This document shows, piece after piece, positions 588 to 17,290 of a stretch of 47,457 nt of DNA. The stretch lies in IMG/VR virus record IMGVR_UViG_3300031813_000041. The stretch is one strand, 5' to 3'. How positions within the stretch are numbered: position 1 is the first letter of the stretch; every line of letters starts with the position of its first letter. Origin of the DNA: a virus. A program made the position numbers and the translations under genes. A model generated the notes under the pieces. That model saw only the letters and a program-made list of their open reading frames with translations, was not told the DNA's origin and searched no databases.

Positions 588-975
588 TCATTTTGTCCAG
601 ATTGTTTTTCAATATGCTACCCGCAGATATGGGATCTATACCGCCCGCCATTGCGTGTTGCGCGGCAACGATCTCATCATAGACTCTGGTTCTGAGTTCA
701 GCGTATCCACGGAGCTTGATAACGCAATCTTGGAACGTATTCTTATCTACAAAGTTGGTAGCCAGTTCTGTAGCCAACTCAAAGTTGATGTCCAAGTCCA
801 AGCACATATCGTACAAATTGTAGACCTTATGCTCACTCACATAGTTGATGATGGCTCTACAGGAGTTATCAAAAAAGTATTCTGGAAGAACGGCTATTTC
901 TGACAAGTGCTTTCTGTCGTTTAGGATGTTCCCGATTACGAGAACTTCCAGTTCGTACATATCTTGAATGTTCAT
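580..975 (-). CDS. DnaB N-terminal-domain-like protein (possible helicase-associated or loader factor)
   Basis: 131 aa. ELEVLVIGNILNDRKHLSEIAVLPEYFFDNSCRAIINYV fits the remembered DnaB N-terminal domain pattern (E..vLg.ll.....l..l.pe.F....r.if..i). Start overlaps the helicase stop. Confidence 0.5.
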   Translation of the reverse strand: MNIQDMYELEVLVIGNILNDRKHLSEIAVLPEYFFDNSCRAIINYVSEHKVYNLYDMCLDLDINFELATELATNFVDKNTFQDCVIKLRGYAELRTRVYDEIVAAQHAMAGGIDPISAGSILKNNLDKMID

Positions 976-3371
976 GCTCTCCTCTTTGAGTATTTTATTT
1001 GTTCTGAAACAATAATCTTTTGCACAAAGTCAGGAATTGGCCCTGCAACATAATCTAATCCTTTAGGCCACACTCCGGTTATCCTGCGATATTTATGGCT
1101 TACCCACCCTGACTGATAACCTTTCTTGATCGCATACGCCACCAGGCCGGAATAAATCTTCTGTTTCGCCTCTTGAGGCATCTTGACGATCTTCTGTAGG
1201 CTTCCTTCCTGATGTTGGATTCCTTCCGGTTTCGGTGTTTGGAACGCAAATTCGTAGCCGCATTTCTTGCAGACCTTTGGCCTTGATCGAGTAACGTGCT
1301 TGCACTTAGGACAAACCTTGGTAGTCGGCTCTGTCTTAACGGTGTTCTTAGATTCCGCAGCTTTTCCGTCATCTAGTTCTAAAGGAAGTGGGTCAGTAGG
1401 AAATCCTAGTCTAGCGACTGAACCAGAGTGGTCAAGTACCAAAGCGCAATTGTGTACTAGCCTTCCATTGGCTGTGAATCTTTGCAACGGACCTGCATCG
1501 AGAATGTCCCATACTTCCCCTTCGGTTTGAAGGATTTCGCATTCCATTTCTCCACAATCTGATCGAATGAAAGTCCTGTTGATATCAACCGATATAGTGT
1601 GCTGTCGGCGTATCTCACTTCCTTGTGTTCCTGTCGGAATTTCTCGAATCGCAGTGTATGACCTTTGAATTTCCGCGAATTTTGACGATTTAGCGATCCC
1701 GTAGCCCAGCGCAGATTCCCAGGCTCGTAATGTCCATTGTTGTCTATTCTGTCTAACTGAAAGTCCTCTGGATCTTTTGGTATTCCTAGATTTTCCATAA
1801 TCCAAGTTGCCGCTTCGTTTACTCCATTGAATTTGAATTGGATTCCACGAGCTCCATAGTTTTTGTAATTTCTGTTTGATGGATTTTCGCAGCGTTCTTT
1901 TTGACTTTGAGTTCTTACATAAAGCCATTCTGGAGCAGTTATCGGCTTCCTCGGATTGCAATGTTGACAGGCTTTTGTGTTCGGTCTTTTTACCATATTG
2001 TGAAAACGGCTCATTGACTCTTTTCCGCAATCCCCGCATCTCACATGAACCAATAGATTGAACGTCTTCCCTGTGGTATTTGTAGAGATGATCGTCAGAG
2101 AGCCGTATTGGTTTCCCACTAATTCCGGTGACAACGATCCGTCTGCCAGTACCCTTCGCTTCCTCAAGCCTCTTCCAACCGTCATAAGTCATAACCTCGT
2201 GATCTGGTGTAGCAACAATTCCATCATAAGAGATAACCTTTTTTATCCCCATGCAAACAGCACCTTTATGCTCAACGAAATTGCACCCATCCCAGACTTT
2301 ATGGTCAAGTGTGATTTGCTCTATACTTACTTCCCCTTTATCTGTAAGTATCTTAGTGCCTCTAGATAGGCAAGTCTTCCCCTTTGCTGGTCTTAAAACT
2401 CTCCCAACCATCTGAATGTATCGAATCAGTGATCTGGTAGGTCTTGCTAGAATCATGCAAGCTGTCTCAGGTGCATCAAATCCTTCTGCAAAAAGAGATA
2501 CGTTTGAAAGAACCTGTATTTTTCCAGCCCTGAATCGGTCAATGACTTCGTTTCTCTGGTCTTCCTTACAATAACAATCCAGATGCTCTGCTGACACGCC
2601 CTTTCTCTGAAATTGCTCAACAATATGTCTTGAGTGGTCAATGTTTGTAGCAAAGCAGATGGTTTGCAATCCATTTGCTAACTTGAACCAATGCTCAACG
2701 ATATCGCCAATCAGTTCTTGTTTGTCTACCGCAGCACCCAATTGCTTTTGATGATAGTCTCCAGCCACAATCTTCACGCCTTTGAGATCTGGCTCAGACG
2801 GAGCATACATTTCACAGTCAACCAGAAACCCACGATCTATGAGATCCTGAATCGTTGATACAACCACCATATCCTCAAATACTTTCCCCCAAGGATACTC
2901 ACGCCCTAGCCCTTTAGAGAAAGGTGTTGCGGTCAAGCCAAGCACAGTCATGTTGTTATGAGTCCTCATGAACTCATGATACTGAGCAGAGCCTCCGCAG
3001 AGATGCGCTTCATCAATGATGACCAGATCAAAATCAAACACCCATCCAAATTTCTTTCTAGATGAGAAGGTCTGGATAGACGCTACAGTTATTTCTGAAT
3101 GTGGTCTGTGAGTGTTCTGACCTTGGAGGATGCCTGGATAAATCTTGTACTTGGCGAATCTTTCCCATTGCTGCCTAACAAGATCCTTTCTATGGACAAG
3201 GAACAGGACTTTCTTTCCTTTCTCTGCTGCCATCTGCGCTAATGCAACGGCTAATTCTCCCTTTCCCGAGCCAGTTGGCGAATAGATCAGAACCCTTTTC
3301 TTTCCTAATCGTAGAATCTTCTTTGCTTCCAGTATGGTCTGATCTTGGTAGTCTCTTAGTTGGACTTTCAT
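972..3371 (-). CDS. SF2 (DEAD/DEAH-type) DNA helicase precursor containing an intein; C-terminal zinc ribbon
   Basis: 799-aa ORF with Walker A SPTGSGKGE, DEAH box IIDEAH, TAT motif LTATP and motif VI QMVGRVLR. CPKCK...CKKCG ribbon in the C-extein. Intein inserted after GKT. Confidence 0.9.
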   Translation of the reverse strand: MKVQLRDYQDQTILEAKKILRLGKKRVLIYSPTGSGKGELAVALAQMAAEKGKKVLFLVHRKDLVRQQWERFAKYKIYPGILQGQNTHRPHSEITVASIQTFSSRKKFGWVFDFDLVIIDEAHLCGGSAQYHEFMRTHNNMTVLGLTATPFSKGLGREYPWGKVFEDMVVVSTIQDLIDRGFLVDCEMYAPSEPDLKGVKIVAGDYHQKQLGAAVDKQELIGDIVEHWFKLANGLQTICFATNIDHSRHIVEQFQRKGVSAEHLDCYCKEDQRNEVIDRFRAGKIQVLSNVSLFAEGFDAPETACMILARPTRSLIRYIQMVGRVLRPAKGKTCLSRGTKILTDKGEVSIEQITLDHKVWDGCNFVEHKGAVCMGIKKVISYDGIVATPDHEVMTYDGWKRLEEAKGTGRRIVVTGISGKPIRLSDDHLYKYHREDVQSIGSCEMRGLRKRVNEPFSQYGKKTEHKSLSTLQSEEADNCSRMALCKNSKSKRTLRKSIKQKLQKLWSSWNPIQIQWSKRSGNLDYGKSRNTKRSRGLSVRQNRQQWTLRAWESALGYGIAKSSKFAEIQRSYTAIREIPTGTQGSEIRRQHTISVDINRTFIRSDCGEMECEILQTEGEVWDILDAGPLQRFTANGRLVHNCALVLDHSGSVARLGFPTDPLPLELDDGKAAESKNTVKTEPTTKVCPKCKHVTRSRPKVCKKCGYEFAFQTPKPEGIQHQEGSLQKIVKMPQEAKQKIYSGLVAYAIKKGYQSGWVSHKYRRITGVWPKGLDYVAGPIPDFVQKIIVSEQIKYSKRRA
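1449..2372 (-). mobile_element. Intein (308 codons) inserted just after helicase motif VI
   Basis: Begins CLSRGTKILT (block A), has TPDH (block B), ends VWDILDAGPLQRFTANGRLVHN followed by Cys (blocks F/G). Boundary codons checked on the nucleotide sequence (TGC at 2372..2370, AAT at 1451..1449, TGC at 1448..1446). Confidence 0.8.
1457..2185 (-). CDS. HNH-type homing endonuclease encoded in the +1 frame inside the intein
   Basis: 242-aa ORF with GAGG 9 nt upstream of the ATG. Cys cluster CGDCG...CQHC and LDRIDNNGHYEPGNLRWAT motif. Lies entirely within 1449..2372 but in a different frame from the helicase/intein. Confidence 0.7.
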   Translation of the reverse strand: MTVGRGLRKRRVLADGSLSPELVGNQYGSLTIISTNTTGKTFNLLVHVRCGDCGKESMSRFHNMVKRPNTKACQHCNPRKPITAPEWLYVRTQSQKERCENPSNRNYKNYGARGIQFKFNGVNEAATWIMENLGIPKDPEDFQLDRIDNNGHYEPGNLRWATGSLNRQNSRKFKGHTLRFEKFRQEHKEVRYADSTLYRLISTGLSFDQIVEKWNAKSFKPKGKYGTFSMQVRCKDSQPMEG

Positions 3372-3562
3372 ATCTCCTCTTTTATGAGTTCACCTGTTTC
3401 CACTGAGTAGATTTGACTGATTGTCCTGTCACAGGAGGGACAGTGATTAGTGTCTACCCTAATAGGAGCCAGCGTTGCCGGTATTTTCCAGACGGTCACG
3501 CCTCTGGGAGTGCTGATTTTATTGCTATTAAATAGCATTTCTAAGCCACAAGTGCATCTCAT
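3368..3562 (-). CDS. Small zinc-ribbon protein, first gene of the leftward operon
   Basis: 64 aa with CTCG...CPSC pairs. GGAGGT RBS before the ATG; stop overlaps the helicase start. Confidence 0.5.
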   Translation of the reverse strand: MRCTCGLEMLFNSNKISTPRGVTVWKIPATLAPIRVDTNHCPSCDRTISQIYSVETGELIKEEI

Positions 3563-4119: not shown

Positions 4120-4461
4120 ATGAAACCGTTTAACTTAGAAGCAGCACTCAATGGTGCAAAGGTTGTGACCCGTGATGGTCGCGAAGTTAGTCAGCTTGTT
4201 TGGTTTGATTGCGCTAACAAACATTGTTTGCAAGGCGTGATTGGTGATTGGCTATTTTCATGGACTTTCGAGGGCAAGTTCATGGGTGACGAGATAGAAG
4301 ATCATGATAAGGATCTTTTTATGGCAACCACAAAGCATGAGGGTTGGATTAATTTGTATGGCTGCGGAGAAGCTGGGGTGATTTATGACACCTTAGAAGA
4401 GGCTGTGGGTCAGGCCGAAGGTGGTTGTATAGCAACTGTCAGGGTGGAGTGGGAATCATGA
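4120..4461 (+). CDS. Hypothetical protein (paralogous C-terminal motif with 9229..9522)
   Basis: AAGGAG RBS at 4108..4113 makes ATG 4120 the likely start rather than 4042. C-terminus HEGWINLY...YDTLEEA...IATVRVEWE. Confidence 0.7.
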   Translation: MKPFNLEAALNGAKVVTRDGREVSQLVWFDCANKHCLQGVIGDWLFSWTFEGKFMGDEIEDHDKDLFMATTKHEGWINLYGCGEAGVIYDTLEEAVGQAEGGCIATVRVEWES

Positions 4462-4778
4462 TTGGACAACAACTTAAAGAAGATGGAATCGCCCAGGTTA
4501 CAAAAAACACAGATCCTGACTGGAAGACGGCTTATGTAATGGTCGCAGAAGCCCTTCTAATGTCCTATGCGCCTGGAAAACTGTTTACGGGAGGCGATGT
4601 GAATGATTACATAAAAGAAGTGATTGGCGATCCTCACGCTCCACAGGCGTGGTCAGCGGCATTTGGTGGGCTGATCCGTCAATACTTGAAACACAATCTA
4701 GTGTCATGGGAGGGTTTTACAAAATCAACGAAGAGATCGAACCATGCTCACTACGTTAAGCAGTACAAGAAACTTTAG
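4458..4778 (+). CDS. Hypothetical protein
   Basis: ATGA start/stop overlap with the upstream gene; 106 aa with an ordinary globular-looking composition. Confidence 0.6.
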   Translation: MIGQQLKEDGIAQVTKNTDPDWKTAYVMVAEALLMSYAPGKLFTGGDVNDYIKEVIGDPHAPQAWSAAFGGLIRQYLKHNLVSWEGFTKSTKRSNHAHYVKQYKKL

Positions 4779-4787
4779 GAGATGACA

Positions 4788-4973
4788 ATGAAAACCAATA
4801 TCGCTCTATATGCAATTATCGGATTTATAGCAGCCACCCTAGTCTGGTCTGTGTCTTCATTCAACAAGAAGTCAGTAACGATTAGCGAAAAGCAGTTCTC
4901 CTGTACGGCTACAGAGCCTTTCGGAATTGAAGCACGTTGCACTCAATATACCTGGACGAAGGGGGCAAGATGA
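4788..4973 (+). CDS. Small membrane protein
   Basis: AGGAG then 6 nt then ATG 4788. N-terminal TM segment IALYAIIGFIAATLVWSV. Confidence 0.55.
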   Translation: MKTNIALYAIIGFIAATLVWSVSSFNKKSVTISEKQFSCTATEPFGIEARCTQYTWTKGAR

Positions 4974-5191
4974 GAGTCGATCTTTTAAACGGGACCACCG
5001 TTACACTTGAATACAATTTTTCAAAAGGCTATGACGCTACCCTTGAAGATCCAGGTTGTGATGATGAGTTTGAGATTGAGCAAGTTCTCTGGGATAGCGG
5101 AAAAGGTGAGATAGATATCTATCCGATTCTCTCTGATCTTGAGATCGAGAACATTGAAGATCAATTCTGGGCATATGAGGAAGAACCGTGA
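4970..5191 (+). CDS. Hypothetical acidic protein
   Basis: ATGA overlap with the previous stop and a GGGGG RBS; 73 aa, D/E-rich. Confidence 0.55.
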   Translation: MRVDLLNGTTVTLEYNFSKGYDATLEDPGCDDEFEIEQVLWDSGKGEIDIYPILSDLEIENIEDQFWAYEEEP

Positions 5192-5835
5192 GAGTAGATT
5201 TGCTAGACCATTCTGGAAACGACCTGTCTGTTGTGAACTCAGCCAGAGTCAGCTTTGATAAAACCTCTTACTTAGATGATGACGGTAATTTAAGTGAACG
5301 GGATAAATCTTTAATAAGCTATCTTGCTAGGAACAAGCACTGGACTCCGTTCACTCACGCAACCGCCAGCTTTAGAGTCACGATGCCAATATATGTGGCT
5401 AGGCAACTTGCAAAGCATCAGATGGGAGGCTCAGTCAACGAAGTCTCAAGAAGATATGTAGATACGCCCCCTGTGTTTGATATGCCTAAAAAATGGCGTA
5501 AACGCGCAGAGAATGTGAAGCAGGGATCTAGTGATGACTGCATCACCGTAGACACGGCTTTATCAAGTCAGATAGCTGACACAATGGATCGTGTTTATCT
5601 GCTCTATAACGATTTGCTGATGTTAGGCGTATGCCCAGAACAGGCCAGAGCTATCCTGCCGCTCTGTACGGAAACGACATGGATATGGACTGGATCACTC
5701 TATTTCTTCGCCAGAGTGTGCAATCAACGTCTTGACCCTCACGCACAGAGGGAAACGGCTGAAGTTGCCAGAGAGATTGAGAAATATATGTCTGTTCTTT
5801 TTCCTGCAAGCTGGAAGGCGCTCCGTGGACTATAA
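5188..5835 (+). CDS. thyX: FAD-dependent thymidylate synthase ThyX
   Basis: 215 aa. ARQLAKHQMGGSVNEVSRRY matches the ThyX RHRxxSxxxxSxRY-type signature region. GTG start overlaps the upstream TGA. Confidence 0.8.
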   Translation: MRVDLLDHSGNDLSVVNSARVSFDKTSYLDDDGNLSERDKSLISYLARNKHWTPFTHATASFRVTMPIYVARQLAKHQMGGSVNEVSRRYVDTPPVFDMPKKWRKRAENVKQGSSDDCITVDTALSSQIADTMDRVYLLYNDLLMLGVCPEQARAILPLCTETTWIWTGSLYFFARVCNQRLDPHAQRETAEVAREIEKYMSVLFPASWKALRGL

Positions 5836-8965: not shown

Positions 8966-9039
8966 TGGGGGATCGACTAAAGGCAGGTCTACGGGTTTTG
9001 ATCCCGTCAATCTAGGTTCGAATCCTAGTCCCCCAGCCA
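8966..9039 (+). tRNA. tRNA-Gln (anticodon UUG), CCA encoded
   Basis: Hand-folded cloverleaf. Acceptor TGGGGGA/TCCCCCA, D stem GACT/GGTC, anticodon stem ACGGG/CCCGT with loop TTTTGAT, T arm CTAGG-TTCGAAT-CCTAG, discriminator G. Resembles E. coli tRNA-Gln (U1-A72, G73). Confidence 0.85.

Positions 9040-14362: not shown

Positions 14363-14363
<1 letters not shown>
13455..14363 (-). CDS. Glycine-rich protein 1 (poly-Gly tracts), fibre-associated
   Basis: ATG 14363 overlaps the fibre stop (TAATG). N-terminal domain TWTVPTGVSYITVEAIGAG followed by GGGGG tracts. Paralogous layout to 19486..20346. Confidence 0.65.

Positions 14364-17290
<2,927 letters not shown>

Follow-up and report, generated by a model that had tools for sequence, protein, structure and literature searches.

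The window analysed here is a 47,457-nucleotide (nt) stretch of viral DNA, taken over its whole length (IMG/VR record IMGVR_UViG_3300031813_000041). It belongs to a new myovirus-like phage; a megablast search with its positions 900..3450 against the phage collection gave zero matches. This study deals with a helicase gene on its minus strand that contains an intein and, within the intein, a second gene in another reading frame. The open reading frame (ORF) listing of the window comprises a 799-amino-acid (aa) ORF (972..3371) and, nested in it on the same strand, a 242-aa ORF (1457..2185). The large ORF encodes an SF2 helicase with matches to Pfam ResIII, Helicase_C and DEAD and to PHROG DNA helicase families. 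Its N-extein, aa 1-333 (2373..3371; minus strand, like all features of this locus), terminates right behind motif VI (QMVGRVLRPAKGKT), aligns with intein-less relatives and matches the DNA helicase family phrog_16 with E = 5e-97. At this point the helicase is interrupted by an insert of 308 codons in the helicase frame (1449..2372), which begins with CLSRGTKILT, contains TPDH and closes with RLVHN followed by Cys. The C-extein (972..1448) runs from CALVLDHSG to the stop codon and includes a CxxC...CxxC zinc ribbon.

Three parts of the insert can be distinguished. The N-terminal splicing region (aa 1-93, 2094..2372) is recognized by a beta-rich structural model, by codon-level selection (see below) and by weak Hint and intein_Nterm matches. 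It is followed by a read-through linker without predicted fold (aa 94-284, 1521..2093). This 191-aa segment is basic (net charge +17, isoelectric point 10), and Lys, Arg, Ser and Gln make up 39% of its residues. The C-terminal splicing region with blocks F and G (EVWDILDAGPLQRFTANGRLVHN; 1449..1520) is marked by residues that are invariant in relatives.

The 242-aa ORF is overprinted on this intein. Its ATG at 2185 lies 187 nt from the first intein base (2372-2185 = 187 = 3x62+1), which places it in the +1 frame. A Shine-Dalgarno-like GAGG (2195..2198) is located 9 nt before the ATG, inside Glu-Val codons of the intein frame, and the TAG stop codon (1457..1459) shares bases with the codons for Leu and Val in the terminal LVHN. 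The product, a putative homing endonuclease of an HNH-like type (I-HmuI-like, Arg variant), is composed of a four-Cys zinc-ribbon-like cluster (C50, C53, C73 and C76, CGDCG...CQHC; 1958..2038), a beta-beta-alpha motif (FQLDRIDNNGHYEPGNLRWATGSLNRQN; 1679..1762), within which the motif LDRIDNNGHYEPGNLRWAT falls, and a helical tail. A first-pass annotation, made from the letters of the window only, had proposed the helicase ORF, the intein motifs (Cys1, TPDH and the terminal His-Asn before Cys) and the +1 ORF with its Cys cluster, its LDRIDNNGHYEPGNLRWAT motif, its GAGG at 9 nt from ATG and its stop near LVHN. All these elements were found as described.

The intein, its junction and the open second frame

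Judged by its motifs, the insert is a class-1-type intein at a genuine extein junction. Homologous inserts of 308-311 aa with the same boundary motifs were found in 56 other loci. As in the window, Cys comes first wherever the N-terminal boundary could be located. TPDH of block B appears as T[PA][DE]H in the relatives, and His-Asn is followed by Cys or Ser wherever the C-terminal boundary was found. In the related loci, too, the host ORFs are uninterrupted across the insert. A side observation concerns phrog_26005, a family of 'unknown function': Its positions 15-78 match the N-terminus of the thymidylate synthase encoded by the window (5188-5835, plus strand), and its positions 115-173 match the N-terminal splicing region of the helicase intein (2148-2324, minus strand). 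Because both regions match, this family seems to have been built from intein-containing thymidylate synthase fragments. The thymidylate synthase of the window itself is devoid of an intein.

The first-pass annotation had suggested aligning intein-less helicases to confirm the extein junction, and this alignment bears the junction out. The conceptually spliced helicase aligns in one piece to intein-less phage helicases. Six IMG/VR contigs encode helicases with 69-70% aa identity to that of the window and without insert: In the alignment, GRVLRPAEGK(A/E) is directly followed by MAIVLDHSGSV, where the window has GRVLRPAKGKT, the intein and CALVLDHSGSV. More distant phages also have contiguous, intein-less helicases at exactly the same point. 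The same intein occupies the same site in L119, a GC-rich phage contig of Logan SRR29078247 with a 239-aa +1 ORF that is 55% identical. The first C-extein residue is Cys in the window (1446-1448) and Met in the intein-less relatives L120-L122. Three insertion points, all with this intein, lie within about 6 residues of each other in related helicases: before CALVLDHSG (window), after AVWL (P0003 and P0004) and after WIDH (L042 and L043).

A stop codon in the helicase frame can only arise if a +1 codon ends with T and the next one begins with AA, AG or GA. This rule permits an exact calculation in which the +1 protein is fixed and synonymous codons are drawn from the window's own usage. Over the +1 ORF, 23 helicase-frame stops are expected and none is seen; the exact probability of finding none is 9.6e-14. 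The third frame contains 16 stops over the same stretch. The first-pass estimate for 184 random codons, (61/64)^184 or about 1.5e-4, is conservative. It had also been proposed that two compensating indels might have displaced an in-frame HNH domain. The independently assembled IMG/VR sister contig L003 is 99.07% identical to the window over 2593 nt, with 24 substitutions, two of them inside the intein, and no indels. Compensating sequencing indels are therefore excluded, and the +1 layout stands.

Distribution, selection and internal start

Relatives were gathered from viral and genome collections using an alignment of +1 proteins, and at least 115 loci were classified by script. DNA-level locus searches were much more productive than a word-based protein search with the intein frame, which returned only 11 matches. 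In at least 89 loci (at least 43 clusters at 90% nt identity), the +1 gene is enclosed by a host ORF of 390-1250 aa that is open across it. They stem from independent assemblies, with complete bacterial chromosomes and isolated phages among them. The +1 offset is identical and the third frame closed in 89 of 89. A stop in the intein frame of homologues had been named as a sign of a dead helicase; the frame is open in all 89 nested loci examined. An in-frame version of the endonuclease-like gene was not found among them. Another 30, more distant relatives are free-standing genes, in which both other frames are closed. The codon choice of the two groups reflects this: T occurs at 0 of 4004 at-risk third positions in nested copies versus 364 of 1276 (28.5%) in free-standing ones, and at other third positions its frequency is 26% and 25%, respectively. 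The overprinted layout is neither due to chance nor to a sequencing error.

In the phage database, the best matches of the +1 protein fall within genes that carry the label "DNA polymerase I" or "DNA polymerase", in several Streptococcus phages and in Gardnerella phage vB_Gva_AB1. In both polymerase loci examined, the ORF reads through a homologous 309-aa intein (CIAEGELVLT...TPDH...VYDIRNAGPxHRFTVSxKLVHN, then C), and here, too, the +1 frame encodes the homologue of the +1 protein. Most insertion sites are in polymerase I motif B (RQKGK.AELA, then C...HN, then CGYGG). Insertions after helicase motif VI are present in the window, L038, L039 and L119; other sites are used in L040-43, L084 and L037. 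According to the record titles, the loci come from Bacillota, Actinomycetota, Pseudomonadota, Lentisphaeria, Ignavibacteriaceae, Spirochaetaceae and Synergistales. 

A TAG formed by CTA GTN (Leu-Val of LVHN) closes the +1 ORF of the window, that of Javan113 and those of many polymerase-type loci (e.g. L001:3185-3187); in some other loci the +1 frame continues beyond the intein end. In L021 and L024 (L024:1920-3638), the polymerase I ORF stops within intein block F (...GVYDIP, then stop) and a 407-aa ORF comes next; these are truncated or rearranged copies with an intact +1 gene. L119 contains a further ORF of 232 aa (1312-2010) with a Pfam NUMOD3 match, which abuts the helicase gene (start at 2007) on its upstream side. 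The beginning of its product (LFPLRPHQQAALEGL) is similar to the N-terminus of the helicase (LLPLRPHQERAIEGV). It looks like a second free-standing gene of the homing endonuclease type at the helicase 5' end, with a short target duplication.

Selection was assessed frame by frame as omega (Nei-Gojobori) across 43 distinct inteins. In the overlap, omega amounts to 1.44 in the intein frame versus 0.14 in the +1 frame. The relation is inverted at both ends of the intein: 0.21 (intein frame, aa 1-75) versus 0.91 (+1 frame) in the N-terminal and 0.22 versus 1.54 in the C-terminal splicing region. This means that the +1 frame in the overlap is under purifying selection at the amino-acid level, whereas the intein frame is only kept free of stops. 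The proposal of the first-pass annotation that both frames are selected holds in so far as both are constrained; it has to be restricted for the intein frame, which in the overlap is merely kept open.

Structure prediction agrees with this division. The AlphaFold2 model of the +1 protein has a mean pLDDT (predicted local distance difference test) score of 88. In the model of the intein frame, computed from a shallow alignment, residues 1-93 are beta-rich with pLDDT values of 64-84 and residues 94-294 range between 22 and 37. The intein-frame linker is hence predicted to be disordered. The structured parts of both products appear to overlap only at the first ~30 +1 codons, which coincide with the N-terminal splicing domain. 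At the C-terminal end of the +1 protein, 20-25 residues are modelled with low confidence, and their apparent conservation mirrors intein block F.

The start of the +1 gene is embedded in codons of the splicing region. GAGG is located 9 nt upstream of the first +1 ATG in the window and, as read by eye, in L119. In L038 and L039, GAGG or AAGG occurs within 20 nt upstream of the first ATG, and a motif of this type is present within the same distance in most polymerase-clade loci, where the start signal is encoded in (K/R)-E-V-I-x-Y-(D/E)-G. In 32 distinct polymerase-clade loci, the Glu codon that supplies GAGG is GAG in 26 cases (background 0.40), and the Tyr codon that supplies ATG is TAT in 30 (background 0.55); these loci are phylogenetically non-independent, and the bias is stated without a P value. 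The two loci with TAC also have GAA, and both have another GAGG-ATG 14 codons upstream. This codon bias points to selection for internal initiation. A simple promoter scan revealed no sigma-70-like promoter just upstream of the +1 ORF beyond shuffled expectation.

The distribution of occupied and empty sites gives hints on mobility. In the best 40 records listed for a junction probe, all of them Streptococcus phages, the polymerase I match is contiguous across the junction, i.e. intein-less; these polymerases share up to 94% aa identity with the intein-bearing polymerase of Javan113. Among related helicases, P0004 (526 aa) has kept the splicing ends and lacks the central region with the +1 gene that is present in P0003 (539 aa). 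It is a mini-intein derivative that belongs to this lineage. A neighbour-joining tree unites the nested copies of the helicase type, those of the polymerase type and several others in one clade, from which the free-standing genes are separate. The tree fits a single origin followed by switches between exteins.

Nature of the +1 protein and competing explanations

It is probable, in our view, that the locus contains a mobile class-1-type intein behind helicase motif VI whose mobility gene is overprinted as a separate gene instead of being an in-frame domain. The helicase is read as one 799-codon ORF, and according to this reading, splicing of the precursor would discard the linker together with the intein and restore the helicase. 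The linker is kept free of stops by a cheap rule, i.e. by avoiding T at the end of +1 codons before AA, AG or GA. Internal initiation on the same transcript would yield the +1 protein, probably in small amounts. This protein may cut or nick intein-less alleles, so that repair copies the whole unit into them (homing). The unit might have arisen when a free-standing gene of the +1 family invaded a mini-intein, and might since have moved between exteins as one piece. An invasion of this kind, already suggested by the first-pass annotation, is plausible: Full-length free-standing relatives exist, the relative P0004 lacks the central region, and an in-frame version is missing from the 89 nested loci.

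Several points weigh against this reading. Splicing, translation of the +1 frame and cleavage are inferred from sequence. The profile matches of the intein are all below curated cut-offs: Pfam Intein_splicing with E = 0.008 (16 bits versus a cut-off of 35.8), Hint_2 with E = 0.058 and TIGR01445 with E = 0.0028 (18.6 bits versus 24.5). The promoter scan upstream of the +1 ORF gave nothing above chance. A crude comparison of 45 polymerase-type loci, with ungapped exteins, detected no pair whose inteins are much closer than their exteins, as would be expected from recent horizontal transfer. The assignment of the +1 protein as a nuclease is weak, with no support from Pfam, NCBIfam or PDB. Finally, in every relative examined, Arg replaces the presumed general-base His.

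The alternative that survives best concerns this last protein. The +1 product might be no nuclease but a DNA-binding protein only, for instance a regulator, a recruiter of another nuclease or a factor that serves the phage, and the intein would persist by other means. This is unlikely. The +1 protein matches the PHROG 'HNH endonuclease' families phrog_374 (E = 1.5e-26), phrog_3377 (E = 2.2e-23) and phrog_2081 (E = 2e-12). A Foldseek search of BFVD yielded 80 matches at E <= 1e-3, down to 1e-11, many of them phage proteins named HNH, homing endonuclease or AP2. The names in PHROG and BFVD are annotations and not activity tests. The model displays strands at residues 142-146 and 158-162 and a helix at 163-169, all with high pLDDT. 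The motif of the family can be written as D-R-I-D...G-x-Y...N-x-R-W...N. D145 and N157 are invariant in 56 homologues, and N166 is conserved across relatives; the retention of these Asp and Asn residues, which could be metal ligands, speaks against a protein that only binds DNA. The same is true for the pattern of several conserved extein sites that are sporadically occupied in close relatives, as known for active homing elements. The Cys cluster is also well conserved (C53, C73 and C76 invariant, C50 in at least 90% of the 56 homologues), and weak Pfam zinc-ribbon matches are found.

On the other side, no Pfam HNH family matches any of the 56 family members at E <= 0.1; zinc-ribbon families are the only ones to match. 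NCBIfam gave no match to the +1 protein. A PDB profile search returned only a zinc-ribbon-like chance match, and single-sequence or domain searches of PDB returned none. With Foldseek, the model found nothing below E = 0.8 in PDB. In addition, Arg146 (in L-D-R-I-D) occupies what we take to be the position of the catalytic general-base His in the I-HmuI motif (DH...N...N). RefSeq proteins of Staphylococcus and Enterococcus phages that are termed "HNH endonuclease" share this Arg and likewise lack Pfam HNH matches. The undetected recent transfer among polymerase-type loci would also suit a non-nuclease. The first-pass annotation had considered Arg as a possible sign of a degenerate nuclease. This does not hold: Since Arg is found in all relatives examined, both nested and free-standing, it is a signature of the family and not a symptom of decay. 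The HNH call itself is weak: It is backed by PHROG and predicted-structure matches, and the missing Pfam, NCBIfam and PDB matches and the Arg at the catalytic His position count against it. We therefore designate the +1 protein as HNH-like and as a putative endonuclease.

A second alternative, which we consider very improbable, denies splicing. Here, an out-of-frame nuclease gene would sit in an insert whose host-frame translation is tolerated as a loop of the helicase. A non-splicing out-of-frame HNH insert has a precedent in ShiLan (PMC11855218), and the sub-threshold intein profile scores would agree with such a loop. By contrast, Cys1, TxxH, the terminal His-Asn and the following Cys or Ser are conserved in divergent copies, omega in the splicing regions is about 0.2, and the N-terminal region is beta-rich with fair model confidence. 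Moreover, the sites concerned, helicase motif VI and polymerase motif B, are catalytic and unlikely to tolerate an insert of 308 aa.

The overprinted, separately translated gene also has to be weighed against programmed frameshifting, by which ribosomes would shift by +1 behind the N-terminal splicing region and by -1 ahead of block F, to yield a canonical in-frame HNH intein. Such a product is geometrically possible, as the +1 ORF starts and ends within the splicing regions. Frameshifting would, however, not require an intein frame that is open over 191 codons, yet it is open in 89 of 89 loci, nor would it explain an own, conserved GAGG-ATG that is upheld by synonymous-codon bias. It is marginally less credible still than the non-splicing insert. 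An assembly or sequencing artefact in the form of two compensating indels is refuted, with next to no probability left, by the ~23 missing stops, the sister contig L003 without indels, the +1 offset shared by 89 loci of independent assemblies and the complete avoidance of at-risk T (0 of 4004).

Some other features of the window and its sister contig deserve mention. L003 contains a 392-aa gene (4211-5389) between the helicase gene and the next gene that is absent from the window (~971-975). The two near-identical phages thus differ by a clean 1.17-kb insertion or deletion of a gene. Its GGTPCQSFSVAG and ENV motifs suggest that this gene may encode a cytosine-5 DNA methyltransferase. In the window, two antisense ORFs of 227 and 218 aa (16056-16739 and 16568-17224, plus strand) without PHROG match accompany a 973-aa collagen-like tail fibre gene (14363-17284, minus strand); they are probably a by-product of repetitive Gly-X-Y coding. 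A single tRNA-Gln gene (anticodon TTG; 8966-9039, plus strand) adjoins recombination genes for an Erf-like annealing protein and an exonuclease VIII-like protein.

Relation to described inteins and meaning of the layout

How inteins acquire homing endonucleases is an old question. The first-pass annotation presented the arrangement as possibly undescribed. This has to be corrected: Preprints of 2025 and 2026 report out-of-frame homing endonucleases in inteins, cite a proposal of 1998 and call same-strand cases rare. In cyanobacterial dnaX inteins, a LAGLIDADG gene is located in the +2 frame (Phillips, DeSimone and Gogarten, bioRxiv 10.64898/2026.09.14.751524); the authors trace the idea to Gorbalenya 1998, 'Non-canonical inteins'. 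An out-of-frame HNH gene without a splicing domain is known from ShiLan (Arsenault et al., PMC11855218). In 'fractured genes', the parts of a split intein are separated by a free-standing gene for an endonuclease (Dassa et al., NAR 2009, PMC2677866).

The closest parallels are instructive. In T4 endonuclease VII-type out-of-frame inteins, too, the splicing blocks flank a same-strand endonuclease gene that uses another frame, the intein frame stays open without recognisable fold, an invasion by a free-standing gene was proposed and there are hints of continued transfer. There, the endonuclease occupies 'frame 3' of inteins of ~265 aa; here, an I-HmuI-like family with the Arg variant uses the +1 frame. 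Furthermore, unlike in that case, the host genes of the present family encode helicases and polymerase I, in both phages and prophages from many bacterial groups. Stop-avoidance statistics and an internal ribosome-binding site are not discussed in the paper on the T4 endonuclease VII-type inteins. The dnaX inteins share with the present ones a disordered middle of the intein frame and a confidently folded overlapping ORF, a ratio of nonsynonymous to synonymous substitution rates (dN/dS) with low values for the endonuclease frame and high ones for the intein frame, a Shine-Dalgarno sequence upstream of the overlapping ORF and the coexistence of full, mini and empty alleles. They differ by the LAGLIDADG type, the +2 frame and the confinement to one host gene in one phylum, compared to an HNH-like protein, the +1 frame and at least five insertion contexts in many groups here.

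ShiLan likewise hides an HNH-type gene in an alternative frame of a host ORF that is open throughout. Its splicing domain and ribosome-binding site are undetectable, whereas intein boundary motifs flank the gene and GAGG-ATG precedes it in our case. Fractured genes also show short coding overlaps between the endonuclease gene and the downstream intein part. Their host gene is, however, divided into two separately translated ORFs that need trans-splicing. In the window, a single, contiguous 799-codon ORF was found, on which the endonuclease gene is fully overprinted. Canonical in-frame HNH inteins of actinophages (Gosselin et al., supplement) have in common with it the combination of an intein and a nuclease of the His-Me-finger type. 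They carry a small CxxC...DH...N...CxxCH domain in frame; the gene described here is out of frame and, upon sequence inspection, of a different family. Identity with the actinophage families was rejected, as the supplementary sequences differ. A published description of the present +1-frame family was not found in the literature searched. We class our layout as a new member of the inteins with out-of-frame endonucleases, and as one of unusually wide distribution. It differs from the described cases in endonuclease type, frame, host genes and taxonomic spread.

The layout also carries a risk for annotation. Depositors write only "DNA polymerase I", and in L119 (2007-4460) the stored gene calls consist of the 239-aa +1 ORF and two antisense ORFs and omit the 817-aa helicase, i.e. 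one gene caller kept the +1 ORF and lost the helicase. Because labels and gene calls overlook the arrangement, such inteins are easily missed or misread as frameshifted pseudogenes. For further study, the family offers at least 43 non-redundant clusters, free-standing relatives as natural controls, the 0/4004 signature and an embedded start. It is carried by culturable systems, namely Streptococcus prophages and Gardnerella phage vB_Gva_AB1, in which splicing, initiation and cleavage are directly testable.

Tentatively, one may go a step further: Of the overprinted intein-endonuclease units found so far, this one could be the most widely distributed and the oldest, a single out-of-frame lineage at no fewer than five sites in helicases and family A polymerases, carried by phages and by prophages from several phyla of bacteria, an idea that we advance with considerable doubt. 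If it were true, separate low-level translation of the endonuclease from a start hidden in splicing codons would be a stable and favoured design, and the overprinted layout would be more than a transient stage that precedes an in-frame fusion. It would then also follow that an HNH-like protein whose catalytic His is replaced by Arg is active in homing through an unusual chemistry, perhaps as a nickase.

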